From Prolixibacteraceae bacterium (GTDB lineage Bacteria > Bacteroidota > Bacteroidia > Bacteroidales > Prolixibacteraceae): DNA of 64,000 bases. The stretch lies in assembly GCA_036508555.1 (NCBI GenBank), contig DATCHD010000023.1, positions 833 to 64,832 of the forward strand. The letters are read 5' to 3'. A program made the translations under genes and the position numbers. The notes under the pieces were generated by a model. It ran no database searches, was not told the origin of the DNA, and saw nothing but the letters and a program-made list of their open reading frames with translations. Positions 1-35,655 of the stretch are shown here, piece after piece (positions within the stretch are counted from its first letter, which is position 1; each line of letters opens with the position of its first letter).

Positions 1-166
1 CGATCGTTCTACGGTCAACATCAAAAATGCTTGCCAGATCGATAATCGTTCGTCCTTGATGGGATAAAAGCAGGCAATGACTGCGTTTTCTGATTAGATT
101 ATTAGCGTTTTTGCTGCTTAACTCTAATGCTTCAATTTCCTCTGTATTCAGTGTTACATATCTCAT
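1..166 (-). mobile_element. IS630-family-like transposase, N-terminal HTH part only (gene continues off the left window edge)
   Basis: Reverse-strand ATG at 164-166 opens MRYVTLNTEEIEALELSSKNANNLIRKRSHCLLLSHQGRTIIDLASIFDVDRRTI. This fits the winged-HTH N-terminus pattern of IS630/Tc1-type transposases. It is absent from the ORF track because the window edge cuts it. It abuts a truncated susD-like gene. Confidence 0.5.
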
Positions 167-230
167 AATGAGATAAATATACACATATTATAGCATATAA
201 ACAAATAAATACGACATTATTTTATTCTAA

Positions 231-740
231 TTACTTAATTACCATTATGGTGATACTTTATGGCTGAATTGGAGCGTAGATCTCACCCCTGCTACCTGGC
301 AGAGACCAAATTGGCCGTATTCAAGGAAGGTTGAAGGAACAAATCCGGATAATATTACACAGAGTGCTAATTTTGATGATTATATAGCTGTCAGACTGGC
401 TGAAACATATCTGTTAAAAGCTGAAGCACAATTTAAACTAGGTAATTCGGCAGGTGCAGTTGCTACAATCAACATTTTAAGAGCAAGATCAAATGCCACT
501 CCTGTAACTGCTGCGAACATCAATATCGACTTTATTCTGGATGAACGATCTCGTGAACTTTTTCTTGAAGAACAAAGGAGATATACTTTGTTAAGGACAG
601 GTAAATGGTTTAGCAGAACAAAAGCATTCAATCATTTTGGTGGAGAAAACATCACTCTAAGAGATACACTATTCCCGATTCCTCAATCTGTTATTGATGC
701 TAACTTAACAAAACCAATGCCTCAAAATCCAGGGTGGTAA
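231..740 (+). pseudogene. SusD/RagB-family outer-membrane nutrient-binding protein, C-terminal ~165-aa fragment without a start codon
   Basis: The frame is open from 231 to TAA 738-740. It reads ...NFDDYIAVRLAETYLLKAEAQFKLGNSAGAVATINILRARSNATPV...FILDERSRELFLEEQRRYTLLRTGKW...IPQSVIDANLTKPMPQNPGW, a classic SusD C-terminus. There is no ATG and no N-terminal ~350 aa, and the IS630-like gene lies immediately upstream. Confidence 0.75.
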
Positions 741-764
741 TTAGTTGGATTTAAACATTCTGCC

Positions 765-815
765 TCACCACCTGCTCCTGATTCAAGGGAGCAGGTGGGT
801 GAAGGAAATTTTTTG
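765..815 (+). terminator. Rho-independent-type terminator after the susD fragment
   Basis: GC-rich hairpin ctcaccacctgctcc / ggagcaggtgggtgaag (one bulge) followed by a T-run at 809-814. Confidence 0.6.
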
Positions 816-834
816 AAGACAAAAAATTAAAGAA

Positions 835-1378
835 TCCACCCTCTAAGAAGGTGGACTTAATAGAAGCCCCTATAAGGGGCCAAAGTCGAGCTGCTGTTGC
901 TCTTCGAGGCGTTCTTGTTTTTCTTGATAGATTACGTATTTCTTGATTTTTTCTTCGTCAAGACCTATCGTGTCAACACAATATCCTCTTGCCCAAAAAT
1001 GATTGTCCCAATAGGGCTTCTTTTTCAACTGAGGATAACTTTTGAAGATTTTGATCGCGGTTTTCCCCTTCATAATTCCCATTAGTTGTGAAACCGATAA
1101 TTTTAGGTGGAATACTTACTATCAGGTGAATATGGTCGATCTGAATATTCATTTCAACTAATTCGCATGATTTCCATTCCAGCAACATTCGAATATCTTT
1201 GTTTAATAATTCTTTGACGAGGCCTTCTAAGATTCGAAATCTGTATTTTGGTGTCCATACAATATGATAGGTGCACCGATAGATGACATGGCTTAATTTT
1301 TTATAATCGCTCATGTCACGAAATCAATATTTTTCAAGCATTGCCTATTACACATAACCACCACCAAAGGAGGTGGTT
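835..1378 (-). mobile_element. IS200/IS605-family element (tnpA only), bounded by CCACC...GGTGG hairpins
   Basis: Similar subterminal hairpins lie at both ends: tccacc-ctctaagaa-ggtgga (835-856) and aaccacc-accaaagga-ggtggtt (1356-1378). They flank a Y1-transposase gene. An extra hairpin gcccct-ata-aggggc (866-880) overlaps the stop codon. Confidence 0.6.
870..1314 (-). pseudogene. tnpA: IS200-type Y1 (HUH) transposase TnpA, split by a 1-nt frameshift
   Basis: ORF 973..1314 reads MSDYKKLSHVIYRCTYHIVWTPKYRF...IDHIHLIVSIPPKI, then runs out of frame. ORF 870..1082, in another frame, continues SVSQLMGIMKGKTAIKIF...HFWARGYCVDTIGLDEEKIKKYVIYQEKQ. The junction is at about 1096-1100 (cct aaa att a tcg gtt) and is consistent with one extra nucleotide. 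Confidence 0.8.
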
Positions 1379-1568
1379 TTAAAGTTTATAATAAAATGTT
1401 TATTTTTTACTGAAAACATAACTAAGTTTTTAAAAACATAGTCGATTCTACAGTTTTGGCCTTTCCAACATCCGCGGAAGCAACTGTAATCACAATTATA
1501 CTGAATAAATTAAAACCCACTTTCCTTTCTACCTGATACATTTTTTGCCTGTGCACCTTGTTTCAATT

Positions 1569-3620
1569 TTATTCCTTCTTCTGTTCCTTCAGAAGCTTAA
1601 TCTGTACTCCGGCAAAGATCATCCTGCCGAAATCGGGATATCCGATTACTGTAGAATATTTATTATCGGTTAAGTTCCGCATTTTGAAATATATTCTGAC
1701 AGGTACCTTGCCTTTGGTTGTATACCCCCCTGAAAGGTCAACGGTCAGGAAATCTCCCAGCGGTTGCGGGCCGTCAGATATAGCAGCAAACCGGTCATTT
1801 TCGAAAGGTGACACATATTTGCACAACAGATTAAGATCGAAGGACTTTTTATCCAAATAAACACCTCCGCTTGCTATGCAAACAGGATTCTCCTTGTTCG
1901 TCACCATGCTTCCGGCTTCTTTCACCGATGATTTCATTACCATGGAATTAAGAAATGGCGACAATAAATTAAACACTTTTGGAGCAATTAGTTCGAACTC
2001 CACTCCGGCTTGATTCTGATCGCGGTTAAGATAGAGTTCTCTCCTTATATTTGTCTGAGTATCAAGATAAGTATCTCCACTCAATGCGATAGCATTTTTC
2101 TGGATGACACCAAAAGCAGTCAGGGATATTTTACCTGAACTTCCTATCTTTCTTACAGCACCCACATCGATTTTAGATCGGGTTTCGTTCAATGGCTCTG
2201 AAAGTTCAGTAGTAAGAGAACCCTGACGCGGTTTAATCTGTCCGGTTGCAGAATTCAGATAGAGCGAGAGCGAATTGTTAATGCGGTAAGAGGCACCAAG
2301 ACTGCCCTGTAAAATTGCAGGTTCCCATTGATCCTGAATGGGTGTTACATTTTTGAACTGCGCTCCATCACCTTCAATATTAAATGCACCATAGTCATTC
2401 AGATAGGTTTTGGTCCAGCGGATTCCGGCATCAAGCGTGACCGGTCCGATTCGTTGCTCATCCACCAAAACCCCTGAAAAAGTCTCTGTATCGCAGCGTT
2501 TACCAGTATAGAAACGCTTTCCGTTTGGTGCCACCCAGCGGTTATACAAACCGCCAAAACGTAAAATATTCAGCCTGGTAATTGAAACTGACTGTATGAA
2601 ATTTAATCCCAACTCGGAGTCTTTTTCGCTTGAAGAGATTACTTTGACCTCATCGTTAAAAGTGGGATTTCGGGAAGAATAAAATAACTGTAATTCGGAT
2701 GAGAACTTTTCCCCAGGCCGGTAAACAATTTTCAGGTTTGAAAGAAGGGATTTATAGGGATCAAAATTCTGGATCATATCACGGTATTTCTTGTCGGCCG
2801 GTAATTCAGCAATCCTCAGTTCCCTTTTACCATCGAGATAGAATAATCCGGCTTTAATGCTCAGCTTTTCTGATGGTTGCCAGTTAAGTTGAGAATAGAA
2901 ATCAGCCATCCCCTCTTTGGTGTGCTTTCCGGATGGCCCGTCACTTTTATCATAGCCTATGCCGGTTGCATAAGAAAAACGACCCAATTTGTTACCGTTG
3001 GAAAGATGAGTGTGGAGGTTGTTAAATGAGCCGTATTCCAATTCAATATTTGTTTCAGGGCTTGAATATTCACGTGTCTTAATATTGATCAGTCCGGCCA
3101 ATCCCGAAAGTCCGGTAAGCAGTGCTGCGCTTGATCTTACGATCTCGATCTCTTCAATATCTGAGGTCGAAAAGAAATAGGGCAACTCTTCAAATTCCTT
3201 TTGCCAGACTCCATTTATAGCATAATCAGGGTAAGGATATTTTTGTCCCCTAACCGAAAAGAATTGTTTCACCTGCCGTCCTCTTGTCTCAATCAGGCCT
3301 CCCGGAACATAATTCATTGCCTCGACAACATTCGTTGCACCTTGTTTTAGGATATCGTCATGACTAATTTTACTGATTGACGGCAAGAGAGAATTAGGCT
3401 CTGTGTAGGGTTTCGCCATAAGATCACGCGATGCTTTTCTGGCTGTAACAAGCACGGTATCAATTTCGTATGTTTTTGAAAGCATATCTTGATTCTTGGT
3501 ATTTTGAGCTTTTATACTGCTGAACCCGGTAAGTAACCAAAGGAATAGACCCACCTGAAAAACAGCAGGAGAGAGTCTTAGGGCATTTTTCTGATAAATA
3601 GTTTTCATCAAATAAGTCAT
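1569..3620 (-). CDS. TonB-dependent receptor (non-SusC type, 683 aa)
   Basis: Signal peptide, then a plug domain (IDTVLVTARKASRD...GATNVVEAMNYVPGG...IEIVRSSAALLTGLSGLAGLINIKT), then a long beta-barrel rich in alternating aromatic/Gly strands. An alternative ATG lies at 3608. Confidence 0.85.
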   Translation of the reverse strand: MTYLMKTIYQKNALRLSPAVFQVGLFLWLLTGFSSIKAQNTKNQDMLSKTYEIDTVLVTARKASRDLMAKPYTEPNSLLPSISKISHDDILKQGATNVVEAMNYVPGGLIETRGRQVKQFFSVRGQKYPYPDYAINGVWQKEFEELPYFFSTSDIEEIEIVRSSAALLTGLSGLAGLINIKTREYSSPETNIELEYGSFNNLHTHLSNGNKLGRFSYATGIGYDKSDGPSGKHTKEGMADFYSQLNWQPSEKLSIKAGLFYLDGKRELRIAELPADKKYRDMIQNFDPYKSLLSNLKIVYRPGEKFSSELQLFYSSRNPTFNDEVKVISSSEKDSELGLNFIQSVSITRLNILRFGGLYNRWVAPNGKRFYTGKRCDTETFSGVLVDEQRIGPVTLDAGIRWTKTYLNDYGAFNIEGDGAQFKNVTPIQDQWEPAILQGSLGASYRINNSLSLYLNSATGQIKPRQGSLTTELSEPLNETRSKIDVGAVRKIGSSGKISLTAFGVIQKNAIALSGDTYLDTQTNIRRELYLNRDQNQAGVEFELIAPKVFNLLSPFLNSMVMKSSVKEAGSMVTNKENPVCIASGGVYLDKKSFDLNLLCKYVSPFENDRFAAISDGPQPLGDFLTVDLSGGYTTKGKVPVRIYFKMRNLTDNKYSTVIGYPDFGRMIFAGVQIKLLKEQKKE

Positions 3621-3774
3621 TTTAAATCTGTTTTTGGATTTGAAGTCTCAAAAATAGTTTTCTTTTCAGCATCTCAAGTAAATAAATATTACATTGTACA
3701 ACACTTTTCAACTATCATTCATTTTATTTAGTATTTTAGAGGTTGTAGCCCAATAGCCTTATTTGTTACTTCAA

Positions 3775-6700
3775 ATGAACAATATTATGAGACAATTTGT
3801 AACGTTTCTTCTGTTCTTTCTTTCAATAGTATCACAGGCACAATACCACAATTGGCCAATGTGGCGTTTCGATCCTAACCGATCCGCTTCAACTCCCGAA
3901 CAGCTAGCTGACAAATTGTATTTGCAATGGCAGGTAAAATATTCTGCACGAACACCCGTCTGGGATGACCCTCTGAACCAGAATTTGATGCAGTTTGACA
4001 GGATTTTTGAACCAATTGTTGTTGACGATAAAATATTTTTGGGTTTCAATGATCAGGACAAGGTGATTGCTTTGGACATTAACACAGGTAAAGAGCTTTG
4101 GCATTATTATGTTGATGGGCCTGTCAGGTTACCGTTAGCAGCGAACAAAGGTAAAATATATTTTACCGGCGATGACGGAAATTGTTATTGCCTCAATGCC
4201 AATAACGGATCGCTTGTCTGGAAATTAGCACTTGCGCCTGCCTCAAATAAACTTCTTGGCAATAAACGGCTTATATCCATGTGGCCGGCTAGAGGCGGTA
4301 TTGTGATAAAAGACAACATCATTTATACTGCCACAAGTATATTCCCCATGATGGGAACTTTTATTTATGCCATTAACGCAGAAACAGGTGAAATAATTTG
4401 GAAGAACGAAGGAACCGGAAGTAATTATATCCTCCAGCCACACAGATCTCCGGCATTCGCAGATGTAGCCCCCCAGGGAAGTTTCACGATCAGTGGAGAC
4501 AAACTATTGGTTGCTGGAGGACGAACGGTTCCTGCTGCTTTCGATCTTAAAACAGGCAATGAACTTTATTATAAGCTTGCTGAAAACCAAAAGACAGGTG
4601 GTTCATTCACCTGCAGTAACGACAAGGTTTTTTTCAATCATTACAGAGAGCGAATGACAAATATGTATGATTCGAGAACAGGAGATAAACTCAAATCGGG
4701 CCTGGGCGAATATCCTGTTGTTGATGGTAATACAATCTATTTTTCAGGAAAAGGGATAAGCGCCTCAACCCTCAACAGTAATAATATACTTGAAAACCTG
4801 TGGAAAACTAGCTTTTCAGCAACCAACGATCTTATCAAAGCCGGAGATTGCTTGTACGCAGCTGACAGCGCCGGCATTTCTGCAATAAAAATTTTGAATG
4901 GCAAACCACAAAAGCTCTGGACTCATGCTACAAAAAAAAGAATTGAAAGGTTAGTGGCTTCAAATGGCAAACTAATTGCAGTTTCGGGTGATGGAGATAT
5001 TCTTGTGTTCGGTGATAAACCGGTTGCCAATATTTCTTTTGTTAAACAGCCTGAATCTGGCTTCAAAAGTGAATCTGCAACTGCAAATGAGATCATTAAA
5101 AGCACAAGGATCACAAGTGGATATGGAGTTATTTTTGGAACGAAAGATACGGAGCTTTTGAAAAGTCTCGTTTCAAACACTTCCCTTACATTCATTGCAT
5201 ATGATAATGATCCTTCAAAAATTTCATATCTCAGGGAATATTTTGATAAATTAGGTGTAAAAGCTGACCGTTTGAGTTTTCAGCTTTTCGGTCAAAACCT
5301 TCCGTTGCTGCCGAAATATTTTTCAACATTGACCATCCTCACTGACCTTTCTTACCTCAACGGTATTAACAAAGACATTTTGAATTCCATTTTTGAATCT
5401 ACCAGACCTTATGATGGGAAGATATGGTTAAAAACAACTGGTCAGGAACAAAAAGTGTTGATGACCACCTTGGCAGAGCTCAAACTATATGGTGCTGAAA
5501 TGAGCTATGGCAAAGGATTTTCCATGATTTCCAGAACAGGTTCTCTGGAAGGATCAGCCGACTGGACCCATAATTATGGAAACATAGCCAATACAGTCAA
5601 GTCTGATGATGATATTGTTAAAGCCCCTCTGGGTATTTTGTGGTTTGGCGGCAATTCGAATCTTGATGTTCTGCCACGACACGGTCATGGTCCATCTGAA
5701 CAGGTAATAGATGGCAGACTAATCATACAGGGAATCAACAGCATCAGTGCACGGGATGTATACACAGGCAGATTGATATGGAAAAAGGTATTTGAAAATC
5801 TGAAGAAAGATACCTGGATGGTTTACTATGATGAGACCTATGATGAAGAGAATCCGTTAGACACCAAATACAATCAGGTACATATTCCGGGAGCTAATGC
5901 CAGAGGGACTAATTTTATTGCCACCAAAGAATACGTCTATGCAATCGAAGGTGCCAATTGTCATCTGATTGATATAAAGACCGGTAAACTTGTTAAAACA
6001 ATTTCAACCGGGGATAAGAATACCCAAAAACTCGGATATATCGGCGTCTATGACAACTTCTTGATTTTAGGCAATAATTTTTCTAAATATCCCGAAATAA
6101 CCATTGAGGAAGATAATAAAGAAGTCAAAAAAGAAGATAACAAAGAAGACAAAAAGGACAATAAGAAATTTGAGGATTTTGATCTTACAGCCAGCAAAGA
6201 ACTCCTAATTATGGACAGATTCAGTGGCAAGAAATTATGGAGTATTACTGCCAATCACGGCTTTATTCATAACTCAGTAATTGCAGGGGATGGCTTGCTT
6301 TTCTGCCTCGATAAGTTACCGCAGAATCTGGAAACAAAACTGAAAAGAAGAGGTGAAAATCAGCCTTCCGGGTCAAGATTACTCTATCTGGATATAAAAA
6401 CAGGCAAAAAGCTATGGGAGGAGACAAACAATGTTTTCGGAACCTGGCTTGGTTACTCTTCTAAACACAAGTTGCTTTTACAGGCGACCAGGCCATCAAG
6501 AGACATGCTGACAGGTGAAGATGGTAAAAGGATGATTGTTTATAAGACCCAGACCAAAGAAATACTTTGGGATAAAGCAGTTTCTTATGCGAATCCTCCA
6601 ATCATTTCGAACGACAAAATTTATACCAATGGGGAGGGCTTTTCCCTGCTTACCGGAGACGCTCTTTACGAAAAAGATCTGTTAACCGGAGAAGAGGTAA

Positions 6701-7533
6701 AATGGAATTACAAACGCGAATATGGTTGCGGCTACGTGGTTGCAAGTGAACACCTGCTCACTTTCAGGTCTGCTTCTGCCGGATTTATTAACCTCGATGT
6801 GCTGGAGGGCACCGCTAGTCTTGGGGGATTTAAAGCGGGATGTTCTGCAAATCTTATTGTAGCAAACGGCGTTCTTAACTCTCCGGATTATACACGTACA
6901 TGCCAATGTGCCTACCAGAATCAAACCTCCCTGGCTTTTATAAATATGCCCTGGATGAACTATTGGGCAAACACTAACTATAAATGGAGCGGAAAACAAA
7001 TCAGGCAGTTAGGCCTTAATTTTAACGCTCCCGGTGACAGGACTTCTGCAGATAACATTTTATGGCTTGAATACCCTAATGTGGGAGGAGCATCTTCGGA
7101 AATTCCTGTTAAGATTGATACAGTTAATTATTTTACGATCAGGAAAGATCCTATCTCTGTTCATTCCGAAAATACTTCATGGATAAGTGCAAGCGCCATT
7201 GGAGGGATAAGGTCACTTGAAATTACTTTATCGAAGGAGAAGCTTGTTCCGGATGCACCTTACAAGATCAAACTGTATTTTTCTGAACTGGAAAATAAAA
7301 AAAGCGGCGAGCGTGTTTTTGATGTAAGTATCCAGGACAAGCCAGTACTTCAAAATTTTGATATTTTCACCGAAGCCGGAGGGAAGGACAGAGAGATTGT
7401 AAAAACATTTACGGGCATTACAGCCGGTAAGACTATGGTTATAAAGATGAATCCCCAAAAAGGAAATACGATCTTATCCGGTATTGAATTGATTCAGGAG
7501 GGTACTCCTATTAAGTTGATCAGTGAAAGATGA
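3775..7533 (+). CDS. Secreted giant PQQ-like (BamB-like) twin beta-propeller protein with a central methyltransferase-like block and a C-terminal malectin-like domain
   Basis: Signal peptide MNNIMRQFVTFLLFFLSIVSQAQ. At least 8 blade signatures (VIALDINTGKELWHY, CYCLNANNGSLVWKL, IYAINAETGEIIWKN, ARDVYTGRLIWKK, LLIMDRFSGKKLWSI, LLYLDIKTGKKLWEE and others). Rossmann-like block YGVIFGTKD...LTFIAYDNDP. Malectin-like tail ERVFDVSIQDKPVLQNFDIFTEAGG. The track start at 3763 is TTG; the first ATG is at 3775. Confidence 0.8.
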   Translation: MNNIMRQFVTFLLFFLSIVSQAQYHNWPMWRFDPNRSASTPEQLADKLYLQWQVKYSARTPVWDDPLNQNLMQFDRIFEPIVVDDKIFLGFNDQDKVIALDINTGKELWHYYVDGPVRLPLAANKGKIYFTGDDGNCYCLNANNGSLVWKLALAPASNKLLGNKRLISMWPARGGIVIKDNIIYTATSIFPMMGTFIYAINAETGEIIWKNEGTGSNYILQPHRSPAFADVAPQGSFTISGDKLLVAGGRTVPAAFDLKTGNELYYKLAENQKTGGSFTCSNDKVFFNHYRERMTNMYDSRTGDKLKSGLGEYPVVDGNTIYFSGKGISASTLNSNNILENLWKTSFSATNDLIKAGDCLYAADSAGISAIKILNGKPQKLWTHATKKRIERLVASNGKLIAVSGDGDILVFGDKPVANISFVKQPESGFKSESATANEIIKSTRITSGYGVIFGTKDTELLKSLVSNTSLTFIAYDNDPSKISYLREYFDKLGVKADRLSFQLFGQNLPLLPKYFSTLTILTDLSYLNGINKDILNSIFESTRPYDGKIWLKTTGQEQKVLMTTLAELKLYGAEMSYGKGFSMISRTGSLEGSADWTHNYGNIANTVKSDDDIVKAPLGILWFGGNSNLDVLPRHGHGPSEQVIDGRLIIQGINSISARDVYTGRLIWKKVFENLKKDTWMVYYDETYDEENPLDTKYNQVHIPGANARGTNFIATKEYVYAIEGANCHLIDIKTGKLVKTISTGDKNTQKLGYIGVYDNFLILGNNFSKYPEITIEEDNKEVKKEDNKEDKKDNKKFEDFDLTASKELLIMDRFSGKKLWSITANHGFIHNSVIAGDGLLFCLDKLPQNLETKLKRRGENQPSGSRLLYLDIKTGKKLWEETNNVFGTWLGYSSKHKLLLQATRPSRDMLTGEDGKRMIVYKTQTKEILWDKAVSYANPPIISNDKIYTNGEGFSLLTGDALYEKDLLTGEEVKWNYKREYGCGYVVASEHLLTFRSASAGFINLDVLEGTASLGGFKAGCSANLIVANGVLNSPDYTRTCQCAYQNQTSLAFINMPWMNYWANTNYKWSGKQIRQLGLNFNAPGDRTSADNILWLEYPNVGGASSEIPVKIDTVNYFTIRKDPISVHSENTSWISASAIGGIRSLEITLSKEKLVPDAPYKIKLYFSELENKKSGERVFDVSIQDKPVLQNFDIFTEAGGKDREIVKTFTGITAGKTMVIKMNPQKGNTILSGIELIQEGTPIKLISER

Positions 7534-8315
7534 AAACGGTAAACCTTAAAATGATCCTGCTGGCAGGTATTATAAGTCTTGCCTGCACGACAAGAGTCTC
7601 GGAATGGGTATTACTCAATTCATTGCCCAACCAATATTCATTGATCTGTTTTTACAATGGTTCCCTTACCGAATCATTGAAAAAGCAAAATCTGGCCATT
7701 GCTGAAAGAATAAAATCCGCTAATATCCAGTTTAAAACTATCAACAGAAAGGATATTAAGGAACCTTATTGGGGATTATATTATGAGGACCGGCTTATAT
7801 CAAGGGCCAACAATCCCGATGAATTCAGGAATTTAAGCACCTCCCCGTTACGTGAGAAAATTGCAGCAGAGTTGATGTCAGGTAAACTTTGCGTGATGGT
7901 TTATCTTAGGAGTGATAACAAAGAAAAGGATGAGAAAGGGTTGCTGTCTTTGCAAAAAGCACTGGAGACTTCTCCGTTTGGAAAGATCATAACTGTGTTT
8001 GAGTTAAGCAGGAACAACAAAGAGGAGGCTCATTTCGCCTCTTTATTGCTTCATGTTGAAGATGACCTCAAAGAAATTCAGGAGCCGATGCTATTTGGAA
8101 TTTTCGGCAGATTTAAAGCTCTTGAACCGCTTCTGGGAAGAGGTATTTCAGAAGGTAATATCAACCTGATGATCGATTATCTTACTGCGGAGTGCAGCTG
8201 TCTTATCAAAGACGACCTTCCCGGAACAGATATTCTTTTTACCAATAGATGGGAAAATCCTCAGCCAGCTCTTCTCAATAAAATAATAGATGCTAATCTT
8301 TCTCTGGCCAGATAA
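7530..8315 (+). CDS. Lipoprotein of unknown function (261 aa)
   Basis: The start overlaps the upstream stop (ATGA at 7530-7533). Lipobox-like MILLAGIISLAC. I recognise no domain. It carries an ECSCLIKDDLPG motif near the C-terminus. Confidence 0.7.
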   Translation: MKTVNLKMILLAGIISLACTTRVSEWVLLNSLPNQYSLICFYNGSLTESLKKQNLAIAERIKSANIQFKTINRKDIKEPYWGLYYEDRLISRANNPDEFRNLSTSPLREKIAAELMSGKLCVMVYLRSDNKEKDEKGLLSLQKALETSPFGKIITVFELSRNNKEEAHFASLLLHVEDDLKEIQEPMLFGIFGRFKALEPLLGRGISEGNINLMIDYLTAECSCLIKDDLPGTDILFTNRWENPQPALLNKIIDANLSLAR

Positions 8316-8537
8316 ATGCAGAATGACACGCTATCACACGACACGCTGAATAACAGGCCTTTGCCGAAATGGCTGATGGATCAGAAGTCAGGACTTACGA
8401 CCATTCAGCCGCAAAAAATTGTGATGAAGGAGGATCACTCTTTGAAAATTTCTTTTATTGCAACAACCATTTTCATCTTATTGGCAGTCGCCATTATGAC
8501 TGTTTATTTTCTTAAAAAACACAAGAACCAAGTATAA
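8316..8537 (+). CDS. Tail-anchored small membrane protein (73 aa)
   Basis: The ATG directly follows the upstream TAA, and its own stop overlaps the next ATG (TAATG at 8535-8539). It has a single C-terminal TM helix, ISFIATTIFILLAVAIMTVYFL, followed by KKHKNQV. Confidence 0.55.
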   Translation: MQNDTLSHDTLNNRPLPKWLMDQKSGLTTIQPQKIVMKEDHSLKISFIATTIFILLAVAIMTVYFLKKHKNQV

Positions 8538-9703
8538 TGAATCCATTAAAATTAGTCACAAAGGAACTTCTGTACCGGAGGATCAGTTCCATCATAATCC
8601 TTTTCACCGTTGTCGTGGCCAGTACCGTAACTGTTGCGATCTATACCTTAAGCAAAGCCAGTGAAAACGAGACCAGAAAGATCATGCGCGAACAGGGTCT
8701 TAATCTTTACATCTTTCCTAAAGGCACCAATCTCATCGATTTCTATTCAATAAATAATACCGGAACCTTCCCCGATAATTATGTAGATGTTCTGGCAGAA
8801 TCAAAAACCTTTGATGCAGTCAGACATCTTACAGGCATTTTACAGATTAAATATCCCGATTGGAAAGACTCAAACGGATCAACACATCAGATTGTTTTAT
8901 TCGGGTACAAAGATGAAGCTCAACAAAAATATCTCCCTGCTCAGGAATTAATGGGATTTGATGTTAAAAAAGGTACAGTTCAGATAGGGTCATTGGTAGC
9001 AAAAAACATCAAACCTGATGCTCCTTTTATAATAGATGGAACAGACGGCAAACAATACAGTTTCAAGGTGGGCAAGAGGTTGGAGGAGGGCAGGGGAATG
9101 ATGGATCAGGGAGTTTCGTTTAACCTGGAAGAACTTCAGCAGGTTCTTGGTATGCAAGGGAAAATTAATAAAATTGAAGCATTAGGCTGTGTCTGCAAGG
9201 ATGGCAGGATCAGGAATGCAAGAAAGCAGGTCCAGGCAATATTTTCTGACCTGGAAGTGACAGAAATAAGTAGTATAGCTGATGCCCGCGAAAATCAGCG
9301 TGTGATGATGAATAAGTATGGCGCCTTTATAATTCCTTTTATCATTATATCATGTCTTCTGATCACAGGACTCTTATTCTATCAGAATGTTAATGTAAGA
9401 AGTCGTGAAATTGGTCTCTTAAAAGCGATGGGCAACAGTTCATACACTATTCTCTTCATGATTCTGTTTAAAGCATTTATCCTTGGATTGGCAGGAGGAA
9501 TTATTGGCTTCTTCCTTGGCAGTTGGGTGGCCGAATATTTTGGAAAAGAAATTTTCATGTTTACCGCATTGAGTATTAAGCCGGTATGGTCGATCTTTTA
9601 TTATACCATTGTCATTTTTCCGGTTTTATGGATGTTAAGCAGCTGGATACCAGCCTTGCTTGCAACCAGAATTGATACTGCAAAGATATTGAGTCAGGAG
9701 TAG
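8537..9703 (+). CDS. ABC transporter permease, FtsX/MacB/LolC type
   Basis: One N-terminal TM helix, a ~230-aa periplasmic domain and three C-terminal TM helices (FIIPFIIISCLLITGLLFY...ILGLAGGIIGFFLGSWV...IVIFPVLWMLSSWIPALLA). This is the typical FtsX-family architecture. Confidence 0.85.
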   Translation: MNPLKLVTKELLYRRISSIIILFTVVVASTVTVAIYTLSKASENETRKIMREQGLNLYIFPKGTNLIDFYSINNTGTFPDNYVDVLAESKTFDAVRHLTGILQIKYPDWKDSNGSTHQIVLFGYKDEAQQKYLPAQELMGFDVKKGTVQIGSLVAKNIKPDAPFIIDGTDGKQYSFKVGKRLEEGRGMMDQGVSFNLEELQQVLGMQGKINKIEALGCVCKDGRIRNARKQVQAIFSDLEVTEISSIADARENQRVMMNKYGAFIIPFIIISCLLITGLLFYQNVNVRSREIGLLKAMGNSSYTILFMILFKAFILGLAGGIIGFFLGSWVAEYFGKEIFMFTALSIKPVWSIFYYTIVIFPVLWMLSSWIPALLATRIDTAKILSQE

Positions 9704-9785
9704 GAAGGCTGAAAAGACGGCAAGACGGAAGGACGGAAAAGAAGGAGGGAAAGGTGCAGAAGTTTAAATTTAGAAGATAAAAGTG

Positions 9786-10430
9786 ATGATTGAAATTAAA
9801 AATATTACCAAAATATATAAAAAGGGGACAGCCGAATTTACTGCACTTGAAAATGTAAGCTTTAACATTGAAAAAGGTGATTATGTAGCTGTTACAGGTG
9901 CGAGTGGAGCCGGAAAGTCCACATTGTTGAATACGATTGGAGGTTTGATACATCCTGATTCAGGAGAGATTTTATACAATGGCAGTGATATCTATAAACA
10001 GGCAAGCAGGCATACAGATGAATACAGAAAGAAGCATATAGGATTCATGTTTCAACAATTCCATCTGATGCCTTATCTGACTGTTCTTGATAATATCAAA
10101 CTTGCCTGTTACGAAAAACACCAGCTTGATTCTGTTGATCATTATCTCGAAAAATGTTCCCTGACAGGATTGAAAAATAAATATCCTTCCGAGTTAAGTG
10201 TTGGAGAGAAACAAAGAACTGCCTTTATCAGGGCAATCATATCTAACCCCGACATTTTACTGGCAGACGAACCGACCGGGAATCTGGATCCCGGCAACAG
10301 CAGCATTCTTTTGTCGCTTGTGGAAGACTTTCATCAAAATGGAGGGACTGTCGTTCTGGTCTCTCACGATCCGTTAACCGCAAAATATGCAAACAGGAAA
10401 ATTGTTCTTGAAAGGGGTAAAATTGGTTAA
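9786..10430 (+). CDS. ABC transporter ATP-binding protein (partner of the FtsX permease)
   Basis: Walker A GASGAGKST, signature LSVGEKQR, Walker B ILLADEPTGNLD, H-loop VLVSHD. GTG at 9783, ATG at 9786. Confidence 0.9.
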   Translation: MIEIKNITKIYKKGTAEFTALENVSFNIEKGDYVAVTGASGAGKSTLLNTIGGLIHPDSGEILYNGSDIYKQASRHTDEYRKKHIGFMFQQFHLMPYLTVLDNIKLACYEKHQLDSVDHYLEKCSLTGLKNKYPSELSVGEKQRTAFIRAIISNPDILLADEPTGNLDPGNSSILLSLVEDFHQNGGTVVLVSHDPLTAKYANRKIVLERGKIG

Positions 10431-11446
10431 TTCGCAGCCTCAAACTGGTTCAAGAACCTTACATCATTCTCAAAATAGAGCCTTAAGTCGTTGATTCCGA
10501 ACTTCAGCATAGCAATCCTTTCTATCCCCATTCCGAATGCAAAACCAGTATATTTTTTACTATCGATGCCGGAGGCTTCCAAAACATTCGGGTCAACCAT
10601 GCCACATCCAAGGATTTCGAGCCATCCGGTGTATTTGCAGACGTTACAGCCCTTGCCGCCGCAAATCGAGCAGGAGACATCCAATTCTGCCGAAGGCTCG
10701 GTAAATGGAAAATATGAGGGCCTCATCCGGATTTCCGTTTTTTCACCAAACAGTTCTTTGGCAAAATAAAGCAGCGTTTGCTTCAGGTCTGCAAACGACA
10801 CGTTTTCATCGATGTACAGTCCCTCGATCTGGTGGAACATGCAGTGAGCCCGGTAAGAGATTGCCTCATTGCGGAATACCCTTCCCGGAGTAACTGTTCG
10901 TATGGGCGGTTTCATGGTTTCCATATCATGAACCTGCACCGAGGAGGTATGTGTTCTCAGCAGAATATCAGGATTCCGCTGAATGAAGAAGGTATCCTGC
11001 ATGTCGCGCGCCGGATGCTCTTCCGGAAAATTCAGCGCCGAAAAAACGTGCCAGTCATCTTCGATTTCGGGACCCTCAGATACAACAAAGCCAAGACGTT
11101 TGAAGATGTCGAGCATCTCATTTTTAACGATGGAGATAGGATGACGGGTGCCTGCCTTCATGGGATCGCCCGGAAGGGAACTGTCAAGCTTCTTAACCTC
11201 AACAGTATTTTCATCAAGTGTATCTTTCAATACCTTGATTTTGTCCATGGCAAAATTTTTCAGGGTATTCATCGCGTGTCCGATATCTTTTTTCTGATCC
11301 GGAGAGACGCTTCTAAAATCTTCCATCAGCTTTGAAATCTCTCCCTTTTTACTTAGGTATTTGATTCTCAGCTCTTCCAGCTCTTCGGCCGACTTGACTG
11401 CTATCTCTTCAATCTCCTTTTGGATCTCCTTTATTCTGTTTAACAT
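10427..11446 (-). CDS. pheS: Phenylalanine--tRNA ligase alpha subunit
   Basis: MLNRIKEIQKEIEEI... coiled N-terminus, then a class II core (HPISIVKNEMLDIFKRLGF, FRNEAISYRAHCMFHQIEG, GFAFGMGIERIAMLKFGI). The true ATG is at 11444-11446. The track ORF extends further upstream from a non-ATG start. Confidence 0.92.
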   Translation of the reverse strand: MLNRIKEIQKEIEEIAVKSAEELEELRIKYLSKKGEISKLMEDFRSVSPDQKKDIGHAMNTLKNFAMDKIKVLKDTLDENTVEVKKLDSSLPGDPMKAGTRHPISIVKNEMLDIFKRLGFVVSEGPEIEDDWHVFSALNFPEEHPARDMQDTFFIQRNPDILLRTHTSSVQVHDMETMKPPIRTVTPGRVFRNEAISYRAHCMFHQIEGLYIDENVSFADLKQTLLYFAKELFGEKTEIRMRPSYFPFTEPSAELDVSCSICGGKGCNVCKYTGWLEILGCGMVDPNVLEASGIDSKKYTGFAFGMGIERIAMLKFGINDLRLYFENDVRFLNQFEAAN

Positions 11447-11479
11447 CTTGGTTCTTTTTGTAAGGGGCAAAAATAACAA

Positions 11480-13594
11480 TTACTTCTTAATAACCAGTCC
11501 GGAACGCTCGAGTAAAGGTTCGACAGAAGGTTCCTGTCCGCGGAAAGCCTTGTAAAGTACCATCGGATGCGCGGTACCCCCCTTCTCGAGAATATTCTTG
11601 CGAAAAGAAGCAGCAGTAGCCTTGTCGAAGATTCCGTTTTTCTTGAATACCGAGAAAGCGTCCGCATCGAGTACCTCGGCCCATTTATATCCGTAATATC
11701 CTGCCGCGTATCCTCCGGCAAAAATATGCGAGAAGGAAGTGCTCAGACAAGAACCCTCGAGTGGAGGGAATTGGTCGGTAGAGGACATTGCCTTTTGCTC
11801 GAAATCCACCACACTGCCAGTCACAGGTTCGGTGATGGAATGCCAGGCCATGTCATTCATCCCAAAACTCAGCTGACGCTCACTCTGCGTCCCGGATTGG
11901 AAATTTTTTGCCCGTATCAGCTTCTGAACTAATTCGGGCGGTATTTTCTCTCCCGTCAGATAATGCTTGGCAAAAAGATCCAAAAAATCCTTTTCGATGG
12001 CCCAGTTCTCCATGATTTGTGAAGGTAACTCAACAAAATCGCGGTAGACTGCCGTTCCTGACATACCCTCGTAGACGGTATTGGCAAACATTCCATGCAA
12101 TCCATGTCCAAATTCGTGCAGAAATGTAGTCAATTCATAAAATGTTAACAGGGAGGGTTTGGTATCCGTTGGCTTGGTAAAATTCGTAACGATGGAGACC
12201 ACTGGCCTAATGTTGTGACCATCCAGGTTACTCTGAGAACGGTATTCCGTCATCCATGCTCCACCTCTTTTCCCATCGCGCGGGAAAAAATCGAGGTAGA
12301 GAACTGAAAGGAAAGAACCATCTTTGTCGAATACCTCGAAAGCCTTCACATCCGGATGATAAACCTGGATGGATTTGTTTTCTTTAAAAGTAATGCCATA
12401 CAACCTGTTAGCCAGTTCGAAGACTCCTGTGATGACATTCTCAAGCTTGAAATAGGGTTTCACTGCCTGTTCGTCGAAACCGTAGCGATCGTTTTTGAGC
12501 TTTTCGGACCAATAACTCCAGTCCCATCGTTGAAGTTGATCCTTGAAACCGTGGACTTTGGCATATTCCTGGACATCTGCCAGATCTTTCAATGCGGCAG
12601 GTCTGGAGGCTTCGTGCAGCTGCTGCAGAAAAGCATTCACTTTTGCGGGGCTTTCGGCCATCCGCTCTTCAAGAACATAAGCAGCATGGTTTGGGAATCC
12701 CAGAAGTTTCGCGCGCTCCATTCTCAGACTAACAATCTTGCGGATTACCTCTTCGTTGTTGTTTTTATTCTGGTGAAAAGCGCGCGAATTGTAAGCCCTG
12801 TATATCTCTTCCCGCAACTTCCTGTTTTCTGCAAATTTCATAAAGGCTATATAGCCCGGGCCCTGAAGATTGAACAACCAACCCTCTTTCTTTTTGGATT
12901 TTGCTAATTGAGCAGCCGTCTCAATTTCGTTTTCCGGCAGTCCGGCCAAATCCTTCTTGTCTGTAATAACTAATTGATATGCATTGGTTTCCGCCAGAAC
13001 ATTCTCACCAAACTGAAGAGAAAGATTGGATAATTCAGTGTTGATCTGCGCGAACCGTTCCTTGGCAGTTCCCTCGAGGTTGGCACCGCTTCTGACAAAT
13101 CCTTTGTAAGAATCATCCAGCAGTTTACTGTCTTCTGCATTAAGATTTTGCTTCGCTTTCTGATTGTAAACAGCCTTGACTCGTTGAAAAAGTTTCTCGT
13201 TTAATGAGACATAGTTCTGATATTCAGACAATTTAGGCGATACGTCTCTGGCGATCGACTGGATAGTCGGGTCGGTCTCGGCAGAATTCAGGTTGAAAAG
13301 AATGGTCGTCGCCCTGCTCAATTTTTTACCCGTTTCTTCCAGTGCCCTGATGGTATTCCTGAAAGTTGGCGCTTCAGGGTTATTGATCAGTGCATCAACC
13401 TCTGTTTTGGAATCAACCAGCAGTTGGTCGATGGCCGGCACAAAATGCTCATGCTTGATCTCATTAAATGGAGGTGTCTGTTGCACCGTATTCCAATCCG
13501 CTAATAATGGATTTTTTGCTATCTTTTCGCTTGTCATATTGATTGTTGTTATTCCGCTCAGGATCACTGCCCCAAAAAACATTAATTTCTTCAT
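11480..13594 (-). CDS. dcp: M3-family peptidyl-dipeptidase (Dcp-like) with signal peptide
   Basis: Zinc motif HEFGHGLH followed by ...ELPSQIMENW. The length (704 aa) and overall M3 pattern fit. Confidence 0.88.
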   Translation of the reverse strand: MKKLMFFGAVILSGITTINMTSEKIAKNPLLADWNTVQQTPPFNEIKHEHFVPAIDQLLVDSKTEVDALINNPEAPTFRNTIRALEETGKKLSRATTILFNLNSAETDPTIQSIARDVSPKLSEYQNYVSLNEKLFQRVKAVYNQKAKQNLNAEDSKLLDDSYKGFVRSGANLEGTAKERFAQINTELSNLSLQFGENVLAETNAYQLVITDKKDLAGLPENEIETAAQLAKSKKKEGWLFNLQGPGYIAFMKFAENRKLREEIYRAYNSRAFHQNKNNNEEVIRKIVSLRMERAKLLGFPNHAAYVLEERMAESPAKVNAFLQQLHEASRPAALKDLADVQEYAKVHGFKDQLQRWDWSYWSEKLKNDRYGFDEQAVKPYFKLENVITGVFELANRLYGITFKENKSIQVYHPDVKAFEVFDKDGSFLSVLYLDFFPRDGKRGGAWMTEYRSQSNLDGHNIRPVVSIVTNFTKPTDTKPSLLTFYELTTFLHEFGHGLHGMFANTVYEGMSGTAVYRDFVELPSQIMENWAIEKDFLDLFAKHYLTGEKIPPELVQKLIRAKNFQSGTQSERQLSFGMNDMAWHSITEPVTGSVVDFEQKAMSSTDQFPPLEGSCLSTSFSHIFAGGYAAGYYGYKWAEVLDADAFSVFKKNGIFDKATAASFRKNILEKGGTAHPMVLYKAFRGQEPSVEPLLERSGLVIKK

Positions 13595-32180: not shown

Positions 32181-32318
32181 CAATCGGAATTTTGCCCTTT
32201 TGTCTGTTATAATTTCGATATAAATAGGCAAAACGTCGGTAAAAACCGCCAAACAGTCGATCCTGGTTTCAAAGGTGGTGAGCTTGGTGTTAATTTGCTT
32301 CAAATTGAAAATCATGTT

Positions 32319-33656
32319 ATGAAGACAAAACAAACAAATTTAATTATTACCGGACTCCTAATGCTCCTGTCAGGATATTCAGGCAATGCACAGGGAAAGT
32401 CCTGGAAACTGGAAGAATGTATCAATTACGCCCTTAACAGGAACATCCAGGTACAAAAAGCTGACCTGTCCAACAAACAAAATCAGCTTTATTCCGAGCA
32501 GGCTCAGGCCAGCCGTTTGCCTTCTCTTAACGCTTCTGTCAGCCAGAACTTTAACTGGTACAAAGGATTCGATTCAACTACCGGACAATACGGTAGCAGT
32601 AATGGTTCAAACAGCACAAACTATTCTGTCAATTCGAATGTCGTGCTGATTAATGGCGGGAAGGTTTCCAACAAGATCAAACAGGCTGAAATCAACCTGT
32701 CGAGTGGACATTATTATTCTGAGTCAGTCAGGGAATCCGTCGGATTGAATATTCTGAACGCCTACCTGCAGGTACTGTATGGTTATGAAAATGTAAGCAA
32801 TGCCGAAAAACAAATTGAGTCGACTACAGAACAACTTGCCCTCGCGAAGGAACGCGTGGATCTGGGAGTCATTTCTATGGCTGATTACCTGCAGATCAAG
32901 TCCGAACTTGCAACTGAGAAATCAACCCTCGCTACCGCTCAGAGTCAGTTATCAATCAACAAGGTAACCCTCATGCAACTCATGGAACTGCCTGTCGAAC
33001 AGGGGTTTGAAGTTGTCAGGCCGAATCTGGACAGTTTGCTTATAAAATCCGACCTACCCAATGCACAGGAGATTTATAATATGGCGATTGGAATTAAACC
33101 ACAGATCAAAAATGCGGAATTGAACAAGGAGAGCGCAGCTATCAATGTGAATATCGCGAAAGCCGATTACCTGCCATCGATTTCAATGGGTGTTGGTCTG
33201 TCGACAGGGTATTCCAGCCTGTTACGAGGGACTGACTATTCCAGCCAGCTGAAGGATAAAATCAATCCTTCAATTGGTTTATCGCTATCCATACCAATAT
33301 TTCAGAAAAAGCTGGTAAAGACTAATGTCGGAGTTGCCGGTATTGCGGTCTCCAATGCGGAACTAGATCTCATCAACACCAAAAACACGCTCCGGAAGGA
33401 GATTGAACAGGCGTGTGTTGATGTTGAATCAGCCAGAACGGAATATGCTGCCGGGCTGGAAGGACTGCAGTCAAGCAGGGAGTCTTATAATGTTACAGAC
33501 GAAAAATTTAAGGTTGGATTGCTGAACTCAGTCGATTATTTAGTCCAGAAAACCAGCCTGATCACATCCGAAAGTAAATTACTTCAATCCAGATTTAACC
33601 TGATTTTCAGTTATAAAGTTCTTGATTTCTACAAAGGAATCCCGCTTGTACTCTAA
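32319..33656 (+). CDS. TolC-family outer membrane efflux protein
   Basis: Signal peptide MKTKQTNLIITGLLMLLSGYSGNAQ, the typical LEECINYALNRNIQVQKADL start, and two coiled-coil repeats. Confidence 0.85.
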   Translation: MKTKQTNLIITGLLMLLSGYSGNAQGKSWKLEECINYALNRNIQVQKADLSNKQNQLYSEQAQASRLPSLNASVSQNFNWYKGFDSTTGQYGSSNGSNSTNYSVNSNVVLINGGKVSNKIKQAEINLSSGHYYSESVRESVGLNILNAYLQVLYGYENVSNAEKQIESTTEQLALAKERVDLGVISMADYLQIKSELATEKSTLATAQSQLSINKVTLMQLMELPVEQGFEVVRPNLDSLLIKSDLPNAQEIYNMAIGIKPQIKNAELNKESAAINVNIAKADYLPSISMGVGLSTGYSSLLRGTDYSSQLKDKINPSIGLSLSIPIFQKKLVKTNVGVAGIAVSNAELDLINTKNTLRKEIEQACVDVESARTEYAAGLEGLQSSRESYNVTDEKFKVGLLNSVDYLVQKTSLITSESKLLQSRFNLIFSYKVLDFYKGIPLVL

Positions 33657-33680
33657 AAAATATTTCAAATACATATTACC

Positions 33681-34898: not shown

Positions 34899-34902
34899 AA
34901 AA

Positions 34903-35655
34903 ATGGAAAATACAATTATAGAAGTCATCAACCTGAAGAAGGATTTTTATGTGGGCGACGTGACTGTCCGCGCACTGAAAGGAATCAATATCCGGATTCA
35001 AAAGGGAGAATTCGTCGCCATCATGGGAGCCAGCGGGTCCGGTAAATCAACAATGCTCAATATCCTCGGTTGTCTCGATAAGCCAACGTCAGGAGAATAT
35101 AAAATAGATGGAGTGAGTGTTTCTGGTCTGAATAAGAATGAGTTAGCGACTTTGAGAAATGAAAAGCTGGGGTTCGTTTTCCAATCTTACAACCTGTTAT
35201 CCAGGACTTCAGCCCTCGAGAATGTTGAACTGCCGCTATTCTACAACGACAGGATTAAATCGAAAGAGCGGAAAGAAAGAGCCATTGCAGCGCTCGAAGC
35301 GGTCGGCTTGGCAGACCGGATGCACCACATGCCCAACCAGCTTTCAGGCGGTCAGCAGCAACGTGTAGCCATCGCCCGTTCACTGGTAAACGATCCGGTG
35401 GTGATTCTCGCGGATGAAGCCACAGGAAACCTGGATACCCGAACCTCCTACGAAATCATGGAGCTTTTTCAACGGCTGAATAGCGATGAAGGAAAGACAA
35501 TCGTGTTCGTAACCCACGAACCGGATATCGCCAAACTAACCACCCGGAACATTATTTTCCGCGATGGCTGGGTAACGAAGGAACAATTATTGGAAGAAAA
35601 AACGCTGGCCTCAGAAATGCTGAGGACACTGCCTCTTGTCGACCAGGAAGCTTAA
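34903..35655 (+). CDS. ABC transporter ATP-binding protein (MacB-type ATPase)
   Basis: Walker A GASGSGKST, signature LSGGQQQRVAIARSL, Walker B ILADEATGNLD. ATG at 34903. The track ORF begins upstream, inside the adaptor gene. Confidence 0.9.
   Translation: MENTIIEVINLKKDFYVGDVTVRALKGINIRIQKGEFVAIMGASGSGKSTMLNILGCLDKPTSGEYKIDGVSVSGLNKNELATLRNEKLGFVFQSYNLLSRTSALENVELPLFYNDRIKSKERKERAIAALEAVGLADRMHHMPNQLSGGQQQRVAIARSLVNDPVVILADEATGNLDTRTSYEIMELFQRLNSDEGKTIVFVTHEPDIAKLTTRNIIFRDGWVTKEQLLEEKTLASEMLRTLPLVDQEA

Follow-up and report, generated by a model that had tools for sequence, protein, structure and literature searches.

The question raised by this locus is what a set of five co-oriented genes does for the cell when the first three of them, as searched in Pfam, NCBIfam, and the PDB, fall into no family of characterised role. 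The genes, designated here G1 to G5, lie in a 64,000-nucleotide stretch of contig DATCHD010000023.1 from a Prolixibacteraceae bacterium (assembly GCA_036508555.1), and the whole of this stretch is called the window. They encode a large exported propeller protein (G1), a protein predicted to carry two thioredoxin-like domains (G2), a small membrane protein (G3), and the permease (G4) and ATPase (G5) of an ATP-binding cassette (ABC) system. The linkage of the genes, the folds and topology of their products, and a set of invariant residues were established, and G1 to G5 are found to be a real, ancient, and uncharacterised cell-envelope module that occurs in at least four bacterial phyla. An earlier reading made from the letters of the DNA (the sequence-only reading) had proposed a dedicated envelope machine of unfamiliar composition; beyond its observations, a CxC motif (two cysteines flanking one residue) is invariant in G1, in G2, and in the periplasmic domain of G4.

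Orthologous loci were collected from one genome per species with the G2 alignment as the query, and the scan returned 29 loci, all from metagenome-assembled genomes (MAGs) of uncultured Bacteroidales/Bacteroidia. When the window proteins were mapped by tblastn, the order G1-G2-G3-G4-G5 was observed in 29 of 29 loci, as far as the contigs reach. Neither pheS nor dcp (an M3 peptidase gene), which lie downstream in the window, is adjacent in any of the related loci, and the other flanks vary among ThuA-like, SusC/D, TonB, LptF/G, and FG-GAP genes. Of the 29 loci, 12 have an ortholog of the TonB-dependent receptor gene that precedes G1 in the window at a distance of up to about 3 kb from the cassette, and in most of them the two are adjacent. 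The ortholog is usually upstream and divergent; L025 and L027 have it downstream, on the same strand as the cassette, and at least five loci whose flanks are long enough lack it. Because the receptor ortholog is near the cassette in 12 loci only, the conserved unit is G1 to G5, and the receptor is a frequent accessory. The proposal of a dedicated, co-inherited unit therefore holds at this level. The receptor, described in the sequence-only reading as non-SusC and divergent about 155 bp upstream, is indeed of this kind (the interval is 154 bp); it is frequent only within Bacteroidales and is not part of the ancient core.

More distant relatives were sought with a G2 profile against 1.84 billion representative proteins (clusters at 50% identity), which gave a family of 2,423 members at E ≤ 1e-3 and 1,775 at E ≤ 1e-10. 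Source names place this family in Bacteroidota, Planctomycetota, Candidatus Hydrogenedentota, and Armatimonadota. Most members are 300 to 550 aa in length and have neither a Pfam match nor a name, even where a source name exists, and the close relatives of G2 are all named "hypothetical protein." In a metagenome scan that yielded 456 relatives, 80 loci were kept and their genes were mapped by phmmer. G2-like proteins at only 25 to 34% identity still adjoin G1-like genes, FtsX and ATPase genes, or both, in orders that include G1-G2-G4-G5, G2-G4-G5-G1, G2-G1, and G1-G2. For example, locus L032 carries in sequence a G1-like gene, a G2-like gene (449 aa, with a transmembrane [TM] helix), an FtsX gene, and an ABC_tran gene, and its G1-like protein of 1621 aa shows the domains PQQ_2, Methyltransf_11/25, PQQ_2, and Malectin; in L030, L031, and L033, the G1-like and G2-like genes are adjacent. 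Linkage was counted in the 25 distant loci with at least 5 kb of upstream and at least 7 kb of downstream sequence. A G1-like gene lies within 6 kb in 17 of these 25 loci, an FtsX gene together with an ABC gene is found in 10 (8 of which also have the G1-like gene), and 4 have neither. That the linkage is kept through rearrangement across phyla argues for function rather than shared ancestry alone, and the adjacency in the window is not fortuitous. Metagenomes of sediment, soil, freshwater, and marine origin commonly contain the module.

The G4 protein matches the FtsX domain (Pfam PF02687, E = 2.7e-13, 50.4 bits against a cutoff of 25.5), and its hydropathy peaks at residues 11 to 29, 263 to 281, 305 to 323, and 350 to 368 correspond to four TM helices with a periplasmic loop of ~230 aa between TM1 and TM2. 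G5 matches ABC_tran (E = 2e-35) with intact Walker A, signature, Walker B (ILLADE), and H-loop motifs, and its best NCBIfam matches are LolD (1.7e-55), FtsE, and DevA-type proteins. Judged by the sequence features of permease, topology, and ATPase, the pair belongs to the Type VII ABC superfamily (FtsX/MacB fold). The permease and ATPase recognized in the sequence-only reading are thus present. Identity with LolCDE, MacB, or FtsEX was rejected on the curated cutoffs (all LolC/E, LolD, MacB, and FtsE scores are far below them), the lack of the respective partners, and the comparison with the paralogs. For LolCDE, the scores are 25 bits against 362 (TIGR02212, LolC/E) and 188 against 308 (TIGR02211, LolD); for FtsE, the score is 183 against 265 (TIGR02673), and the module lacks a recurrent neighbor of the LytM, CHAP, or amidase kind that would mark a peptidoglycan hydrolase partner of FtsEX. 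A MacAB-TolC system was likewise rejected: the cassette contains neither HlyD nor OEP genes, nor do such genes recur in the 29 orthologous loci. The window itself contains a canonical tripartite efflux locus (32295-36888, + strand), which served as an internal control.

A comparison with the paralogs in the window indicates that G4 and G5 form a module-specific subfamily. The G4 protein aligns with module-linked distant permeases over the full length, including the periplasmic domain, at 28 to 37% identity (E = 1e-40 to 1e-73), whereas the alignment with the MacB paralog of the window gives E = 0.34 over 54 residues. Similarly, G5 is 40 to 43% identical to module-linked ATPases and 33% identical to the MacB-type ATPase of the window. 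MacB_PCD (PF12704) was not detected in G4 at E ≤ 0.01, whereas the paralog matches it at 1e-50. The CxC motif of G4 (in the sequence ALGCVC) is invariant in 31 of 31 aligned module permeases, which comprise that of the window, 6 from Bacteroidales loci, and 24 from distant loci. Six CxC motifs occur among the 46 large open reading frames (ORFs) of the window, four of them in G1, G2, and G4; the MacB-type paralog has none.

In the Type VII superfamily, ATP drives work in the periplasm rather than transport. What such a system does depends on its partner in the periplasm or membrane, of which only a handful of types have been described (PMC12646458). The G4/G5 pair shares with FtsEX-EnvC-amidase, YbbAP-TesA, and LolCDE-LolA (PMC12646458, PMC7668044) the FtsX fold, the four TM helices, the periplasmic domain between TM1 and TM2, an ATPase of the LolD/FtsE type, co-encoded partner genes, and the lack of an adaptor/TolC pair. 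It differs from them in the CxC motif of G4, in the absence of MacB_PCD recognition, and in partners, G1 and G2, of unrelated folds. MacAB-TolC belongs to the same ABC superfamily and has the same ATPase type, but OEP, HlyD, and MacB_PCD are features of the MacAB locus only. The sequence-only reading had remarked on the lack of an HlyD-type adaptor; there is indeed none in the cassette, but this framing is misleading, as G2 together with G3 is the best candidate for the permease partner.

No match for G2 or G3 was found in Pfam, NCBIfam, a PDB sequence search, or a PDB search with the family profile; in this respect, the earlier statement that G2 has no nameable domain agrees with the libraries. 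The AlphaFold2 (AF2) model of G2 is of moderate confidence (predicted local distance difference test [pLDDT] score of 69.8), and G2 models as two tandem thioredoxin-like domains. Foldseek gave a probability of 1.0 for a-b domain pairs of protein disulfide isomerase (PDI), ERp27/44/72, calsequestrin, the N-terminal domain of AhpF, and Pyrococcus PDO. The predicted fold resembles that of the PDI-family tandem thioredoxin proteins, while the identity is only 7 to 15% and the TM-score is low (0.2 to 0.33). The CxxC that marks the active site of thioredoxin/PDI oxidoreductases occurs in neither domain; the conserved cysteines of G2 are instead the one that probably begins the mature protein and the pair in a CSC motif, located where a helix predicted to follow the second domain ends. 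Residues C222, C224, S105, R108, and W241 and the FGRG...L.PL.G.GI block are invariant in the family, and the cysteine that comes right after the signal peptide and precedes PVxxYxLxxW is nearly invariant.

G2 had been called a lipoprotein in the sequence-only reading. An A-x-A signal peptidase I site precedes the conserved cysteine in 73 of 77 distant homologs, which weakens this call; position -2 is W, Q, R, H, or E, and a strict lipobox fits 5 of the 77. The conserved cysteine is thus most likely the first residue of mature G2 after cleavage by signal peptidase I, as judged from these aligned sites. The S-L-A-C form in the window and other Bacteroidales is ambiguous, and G2 is probably not primarily a lipoprotein.

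The G3 protein is predicted to be a single-pass membrane protein with an N-out/C-in orientation, and its gene lies between G2 and G4 in all 29 Bacteroidales loci. Among the distant G2 homologs, 66 of the 71 complete sequences extend 80 to 190 residues past the CSC motif with a low-complexity linker, a TM helix, and a basic tail of 2 to 19 residues. In the window, G2 ends 37 residues after this motif, and G3 adds 44 residues, the TM helix, and the tail YFLKKHKNQV. G3-like sequences were not found outside Bacteroidales in the phmmer mapping of distant loci. Most likely, therefore, G3 is a membrane anchor that was split off from the C terminus of G2, and G2 and G3 together are a split type I membrane protein; its description as a tail-anchored micro-protein is apt for the single C-terminal helix but not for an independent protein, since the anchor is fused to most distant G2 homologs. 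A partial parallel is found in Bacillus subtilis FtsEX-CwlO, a Type VII ABC complex that needs the membrane cofactors SweC and SweD in addition to its extracytoplasmic effector, analogous to G3 between G2 and G4; that effector is a peptidoglycan hydrolase, and no sequence relationship to the module exists (PMC6705773).

G1 consists of a Sec signal peptide, a propeller, a methyltransferase-like domain, a second propeller, and a malectin domain. Pfam assigns PQQ_2 in three stretches (1e-30) and Malectin (5e-14, or 3.4e-15 on the isolated segment), and every distant G1-like protein has a Sec signal peptide followed by DWPxWR. The signal peptide and the C-terminal malectin domain noted earlier are thus present, as is a K/E/D/N-rich loop (aa 775-800), which is the least conserved stretch of the protein. 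The propeller repeats are also real, although the count of at least eight blade signatures was somewhat generous, as the strict motif occurs five times and a looser form seven times. As the signal peptide is all that is shown, G1 is placed in the periplasm by default, and the term "exoprotein" is unsupported. Propeller 1 was modeled by AF2 with mostly confident pLDDT, and Foldseek matched it to BamB with a TM-score of ~0.7 on the target. BamB is an eight-bladed propeller. G1 shares the fold and repeat signature of BamB/PQQ-like propellers but is four times larger and multi-domain.

The domain between the propellers has a class I methyltransferase fold, as indicated by a match of the G1 family profile to the solved SAM (S-adenosylmethionine) methyltransferase 3dlc (E = 1.8e-6), by the Methyltransf_11/25 assignment in L032, and by the alternating β/α pattern at residues 413 to 565 of the AF2 model. 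The glycine loop of the window protein is GTKDTEL, in place of the GxGxGRL that is kept in distant homologs together with an acidic residue after β-2 and LRPYGG; the degenerate loop suspected by the sequence-only reading is therefore borne out. Residues G449, G455, R487, R499, Y515, R544, P545, and G548 are invariant in this domain and differ from the classical SAM ligands. To our knowledge, no periplasmic SAM pool has been described.

Conservation along G1 was measured over 24 homologs at 26 to 45% identity. The most conserved stretches are in propeller 2, namely its entry (residues 597-640, WTH...S.D..V..PL..WFG...RH..GP) and its closing blades (residues 981-1050, R.YGCG...FRS...GC..N...C.C.Y..Q). 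Cysteines C985, C1023, C1043, and C1045 are 100% conserved, and C139, C729, H223, H599, H636, and H832 are near-invariant. Three known functions were considered for G1 and rejected. It shares only the fold with BamB (TIGR03300, 56.9 bits against a cutoff of 285, for a protein of 1252 aa and four domains) and with PQQ dehydrogenases (TIGR03075, 48.8 bits against 480). Tetrathionate hydrolase is the sole enzyme among the sequence matches of G1, and the position of its catalytic Asp325 (7cqy, D325N; the chain numbering is offset by one) probably aligns to Thr195. Pfam, domain, and profile searches detected no catalytic carbohydrate-active enzyme (CAZyme) domain in G1.

The neighbors of the module offer some hints about a ligand. 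The receptor matches the Pfam families Plug and TonB_dep_Rec_b-barrel, and all its NCBIfam matches are far below the cutoffs. It has no SusC-type match and no SusD partner; regarding specificity, no PDB sequence matched at E ≤ 1e-3, and heme, siderophore, and B12 matches were sub-threshold only. ModA2BC-type genes and MoeB accompany the module, in varied arrangements, in 16 of about 78 distant loci; they encode a MoeB-like ThiF protein along with a ModB-like permease, a ModC/WtpC-like ATPase, and a tandem binding protein of the ModA type, which reaches 120.8 bits on TIGR01256 (modA cutoff, 62.5). In L099, the G2-like gene alone is divergent from the Mod operon. Both recurrent neighbors are uptake systems, which mildly favors the acquisition or processing of a nutrient over export.

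We propose that G1 to G5 constitute one envelope machine in which mechanotransmission by a Type VII ABC system drives thiol-based handling of a ligand, a proposition whose chances we regard as evenly balanced. ATP hydrolysis at the cytoplasmic side of the G4/G5 complex would cause a movement of the periplasmic domain, probably without transport across the inner membrane, as in characterised relatives. The Sec-exported G2 would be the partner of the permease, tethered beside it in the ancestral form by the C-terminal TM helix that would have become the separate gene G3 in Bacteroidales. G1 would be the client or effector, with G4 and G5 acting on G2 and, through G2, on G1. The ATP-driven motion would gate a thiol-based hand-over among the CxC sites of G1, G2, and G4, in which the mature N-terminal cysteine of G2 and the two further invariant cysteines of G1 may also take part. 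Candidate cargoes are a thiophilic metal or metalloid, a sulfur species, or a disulfide, and the ligand would be a scarce nutrient that is acquired or processed rather than an exported toxin.

A narrower form of this proposal, which is tentative and leans toward the doubtful, is an ATP-powered periplasmic cysteine relay, which would be a class of Type VII ABC machine not recognized before. As the periplasmic domain of the permease moves, a thiophilic cargo (a metal, a metalloid, thiomolybdate or thiotungstate, or persulfide sulfur, for instance) would pass among the CxC motifs of the permease, of G2, and of G1. The relay would feed or be fed by the TonB-dependent receptor in Bacteroidales and by the ModABC-type importer in Planctomycetota-like lineages. 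In NosDFY-NosL, an ABC system (with NosFY of the ABC-2 type) and a cysteine-bearing periplasmic carrier service a propeller enzyme, nitrous-oxide reductase, and in the Mer cysteine-pair relay, a thiophilic ligand is handed stepwise between cysteine pairs. The likeness of the module to either system is conceptual only, with no known relationship in sequence or fold, and the ABC class of NosFY differs.

Several points weigh against one machine for thiol-based ligand handling. The physical contacts among the proteins are ones that we infer, as are the direction of transfer and the identity of the ligand, and the CxC pairs could form disulfides, either structural or between subunits, instead of binding a ligand. 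Many loci have G1 and G2 but no adjacent ABC pair, which may be dispensable or encoded elsewhere. The split-gene case for G3 draws on architecture, not on sequence similarity, and among TM-less G2 variants an adjacent ABC pair occurs in 0 of 3, versus 17 of 30 for the others, which is the expected direction but is not significant (p = 0.10). The pLDDT of the AF2 model falls below 50 exactly at the most conserved regions of G1, where the model is unreliable. With regard to the ligand, searches with the receptor as the query detected no ortholog in distant loci, and the Mod/MoeB genes are absent from the window and from the Bacteroidales loci, so the acquisition theme rests on two different neighbors. 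No riboswitch was found in a relaxed Rfam scan of window positions 1 to 12000 or in a gathering-threshold scan of seven Mod-linked loci, and no recognizable regulator site points to a ligand.

The first alternative is a dedicated role in folding or redox maturation. Here, G2 would be a PDI-like isomerase or chaperone for the cysteine-bearing propeller of G1, with its CxC serving as a redox motif of the PDI type, the ABC pair would supply mechanical work for folding or release, and the function of the module would reside in G1 alone, one example being glycan binding by the malectin domain. The best structural matches of G2 (the PDI a-b pairs, ERp27/44/72, QSOX, and the archaeal PDO) fit such a role, the G2-G1 adjacency is the most frequent link in the distant loci, and G1 offers four invariant and two near-invariant cysteines; CxC peptides, moreover, can mimic PDI activity. 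However, it is an unlikely explanation, since it accounts neither for the CxC that the periplasmic domain of G4 invariably carries nor for the recurrent ModABC/MoeB and receptor neighbors, and the canonical CxxC is missing from both G2 domains. General Dsb systems also normally suffice for periplasmic disulfides.

Less probable still is a glycan unit, in which G1 would bind or process carbohydrate together with the receptor as a non-canonical polysaccharide utilization system, its malectin domain serving as a carbohydrate-binding module and its propellers as a lyase, hydrolase, or binder, and the ABC pair and G2 would be accessory. The malectin domain is conserved across the G1 family, the receptor is adjacent in many Bacteroidales loci, and SusC/SusD, ThuA-like, or GFO_IDH_MocA genes lie near some loci, but these sugar-related neighbors are not conserved, the receptor is neither SusC-type nor paired with SusD, and no catalytic CAZyme domain was detected. 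The strongest conservation is in the Cys/His/Arg-rich propeller stretches, G2, and G4 and not in the malectin domain.

Lipoprotein handling in the manner of Lol, with G4 and G5 extracting G2 or other lipoproteins from the inner membrane, is largely excluded and highly improbable. What speaks for it is that LolD is the best NCBIfam match of G5, that G4 has a weak LolC/E match (8e-6), and that Cys19 of the Bacteroidales G2 follows a hydrophobic signal peptide. These scores are far below the curated cutoffs, no LolA-like gene recurs, and the distant G2 homologs have the A-x-A site with a bulky or charged residue at position -2 and a C-terminal TM anchor instead. Finally, a fortuitous adjacency of unrelated genes, in favor of which nothing was found, is excluded by the identical order within variable flanks, the linkage across phyla, and the module-specific ABC pair.

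The coordinates of the features are collected in Table 1.

Table 1. Features of the G1-G5 locus and of the efflux locus used as a control, in window coordinates
Feature	Position	Strand	Remarks
TonB-dependent receptor gene	1569-3620	-	683 aa; Plug + barrel, not SusC-type
Receptor-G1 intergenic region	3621-3774		154 bp, divergent; presumed promoters
G1	3775-7533	+	1252 aa; ATG start, ORF opens at TTG 3763
G1 Sec signal peptide	aa 1-22	+	
G1 propeller 1	3841-5064 (aa ~23-430)	+	BamB-type fold
G1 class I methyltransferase-like Rossmann domain	5080-5544 (aa ~436-590)	+	
G1 propeller 2	5557-6969 (aa ~595-1065)	+	PQQ_2, 2.3e-9
G1 invariant C985	within 6715-6732	+	
G1 invariant C1023	within 6835-6852	+	
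G1 invariant CxC, C1043-Q-C1045	6901-6909	+	
G1 malectin domain	7222-7494 (aa ~1150-1240)	+	
G2	7530-8315	+	261 aa
G2 Cys19	7584-7586	+	follows signal peptide
G2 invariant CSC, aa 222-224	8193-8201	+	
G3	8316-8537	+	73 aa
G3 TM helix	8448-8516	+	single C-terminal TM, basic tail KKHKNQV
G4	8537-9703	+	388 aa
G4 invariant CxC, C218-V-C220	9188-9196	+	periplasmic domain
G4-G5 spacer	9704-9782	+	79 nt, purine-rich, unstructured
G5	9783-10430	+	215 aa; ABC ATPase of LolD/FtsE/MacB type
Efflux locus, OEP	32295-33656	+	
Efflux locus, HlyD adaptor	33681-34898	+	
Efflux locus, ABC ATPase	34798-35655	+	
Efflux locus, MacB_PCD + FtsX permease	35668-36888	+	
His_kinase/LytTR two-component pair	36913-38738	+	after efflux locus

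The five genes are packed on the same strand with the junctions ATGA (G1/G2), TAAATG (G2/G3), and TAATG (G3/G4), exactly as the sequence-only reading had them. It had also pointed to a polypurine spacer of 80 nt before G5; the spacer measures 79 nt and is 81% purine. In the window, 17 frames of 79 nt reach this value, and all of them overlap the spacer stretch (first listed 9680-9697). Short tandem units occur inside it at 9713-9752 (AAAGACGG, 3.4 copies; GAAGGACGGAAAA, 1.9 copies). No stable RNA structure (z = -0.09) and no convincing terminator were found in the spacer, and the G4-G5 gap in orthologs ranges from an overlap up to roughly 250 nt. Its role as a regulatory element was therefore rejected, and because the length varies among orthologs, the spacer resembles a product of local slippage more than a conserved element. 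The 3' ends of G5 and of the convergent pheS overlap by 4 nt (10427-10430), so that an intrinsic terminator would not fit between the two genes. Within the pheS coding region (11224-11273, + strand), a sub-threshold match to an Rfam CRISPR direct repeat (26.8 bits against a gathering threshold of 36, E = 0.076) is almost certainly due to chance.

The receptor-G1 intergenic region of the window gave no Rfam match. In this region of the closest orthologous loci (L002, L003, and L005), a direct repeat resembling AGTTAAaTAAAGTTAAATT was observed; the copy in the window is partly degenerate (AAGTAAATAAATATTACATT), and the repeat may be a candidate binding site for a regulator. Just past the 3' end of the receptor gene, a 113-aa ORF (973-1314, - strand) matches Y1_Tnp (Pfam, 1.2e-16), an IS200-like transposase domain, over about half of the profile and is possibly a fragment. 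In the Bacteroidales loci, the only extra neighbor that recurs is a polytopic membrane protein of ~372 aa (6 loci), which has no Pfam match and carries the N-terminal motif SVDFFRGFTMFLL. It is encoded in L009 (5024-6142), L017, L021, L023, L027, and L028, directly upstream of G1 in L009, L027, and L028. The MAG MFD03804.bin.1.39 has two complete copies of the receptor and G1 to G5 on separate contigs (L020 and L029), and the L029 copy matches as many short frame-shifted pieces, which indicates either a pseudogene or long-read indel errors.

Other genes recur beside the module in distant loci. In marine-type loci, a protein of ~1700 aa with GDSL lipase, DUF7133, HEAT, plastocyanin-like copper-binding, and cytochrome c domains is encoded upstream of and divergent from the G2-like gene (L076, L084, and L093) and is also found in L086. 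DUF1501 genes recur in L070, L097, L100, L107, and L113 and fit a Planctomycetota-like origin. In L030 and L031, a gene of the URO-D family (uroporphyrinogen decarboxylase/MtaA-like methyltransferase family) is directly upstream of the G1-like gene, and in L030, a radical SAM/SPASM gene and a gene with an HZS_alpha domain are nearby.

Full-text literature searches turned up neither this gene set nor an FtsX permease with a CxC motif, and no paper, curated family, or solved structure was found for G2 or for the architecture of G1, in agreement with the earlier statement that no characterised system has such a composition. The ABC core belongs to a known superfamily, while the partner set and the CxC signature are new. 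As Type VII ABC systems are understood through their partners, the module would add an unprecedented partner set, with a large and wholly unannotated G2 family, a cysteine signature that extends to the permease itself, and, in G1, an exported protein with a methyltransferase fold. The split between the G2 and G3 genes maps a probable TM-TM contact with the permease, and the three CxC motifs and the genomic link to molybdate/tungstate-type uptake are testable handles. If true, the cysteine relay would be an energy-coupled step of trace-element or sulfur acquisition in the periplasm in at least four phyla. The function of the module likely matters for the envelope physiology or the trace-nutrient economy of abundant uncultured bacteria.

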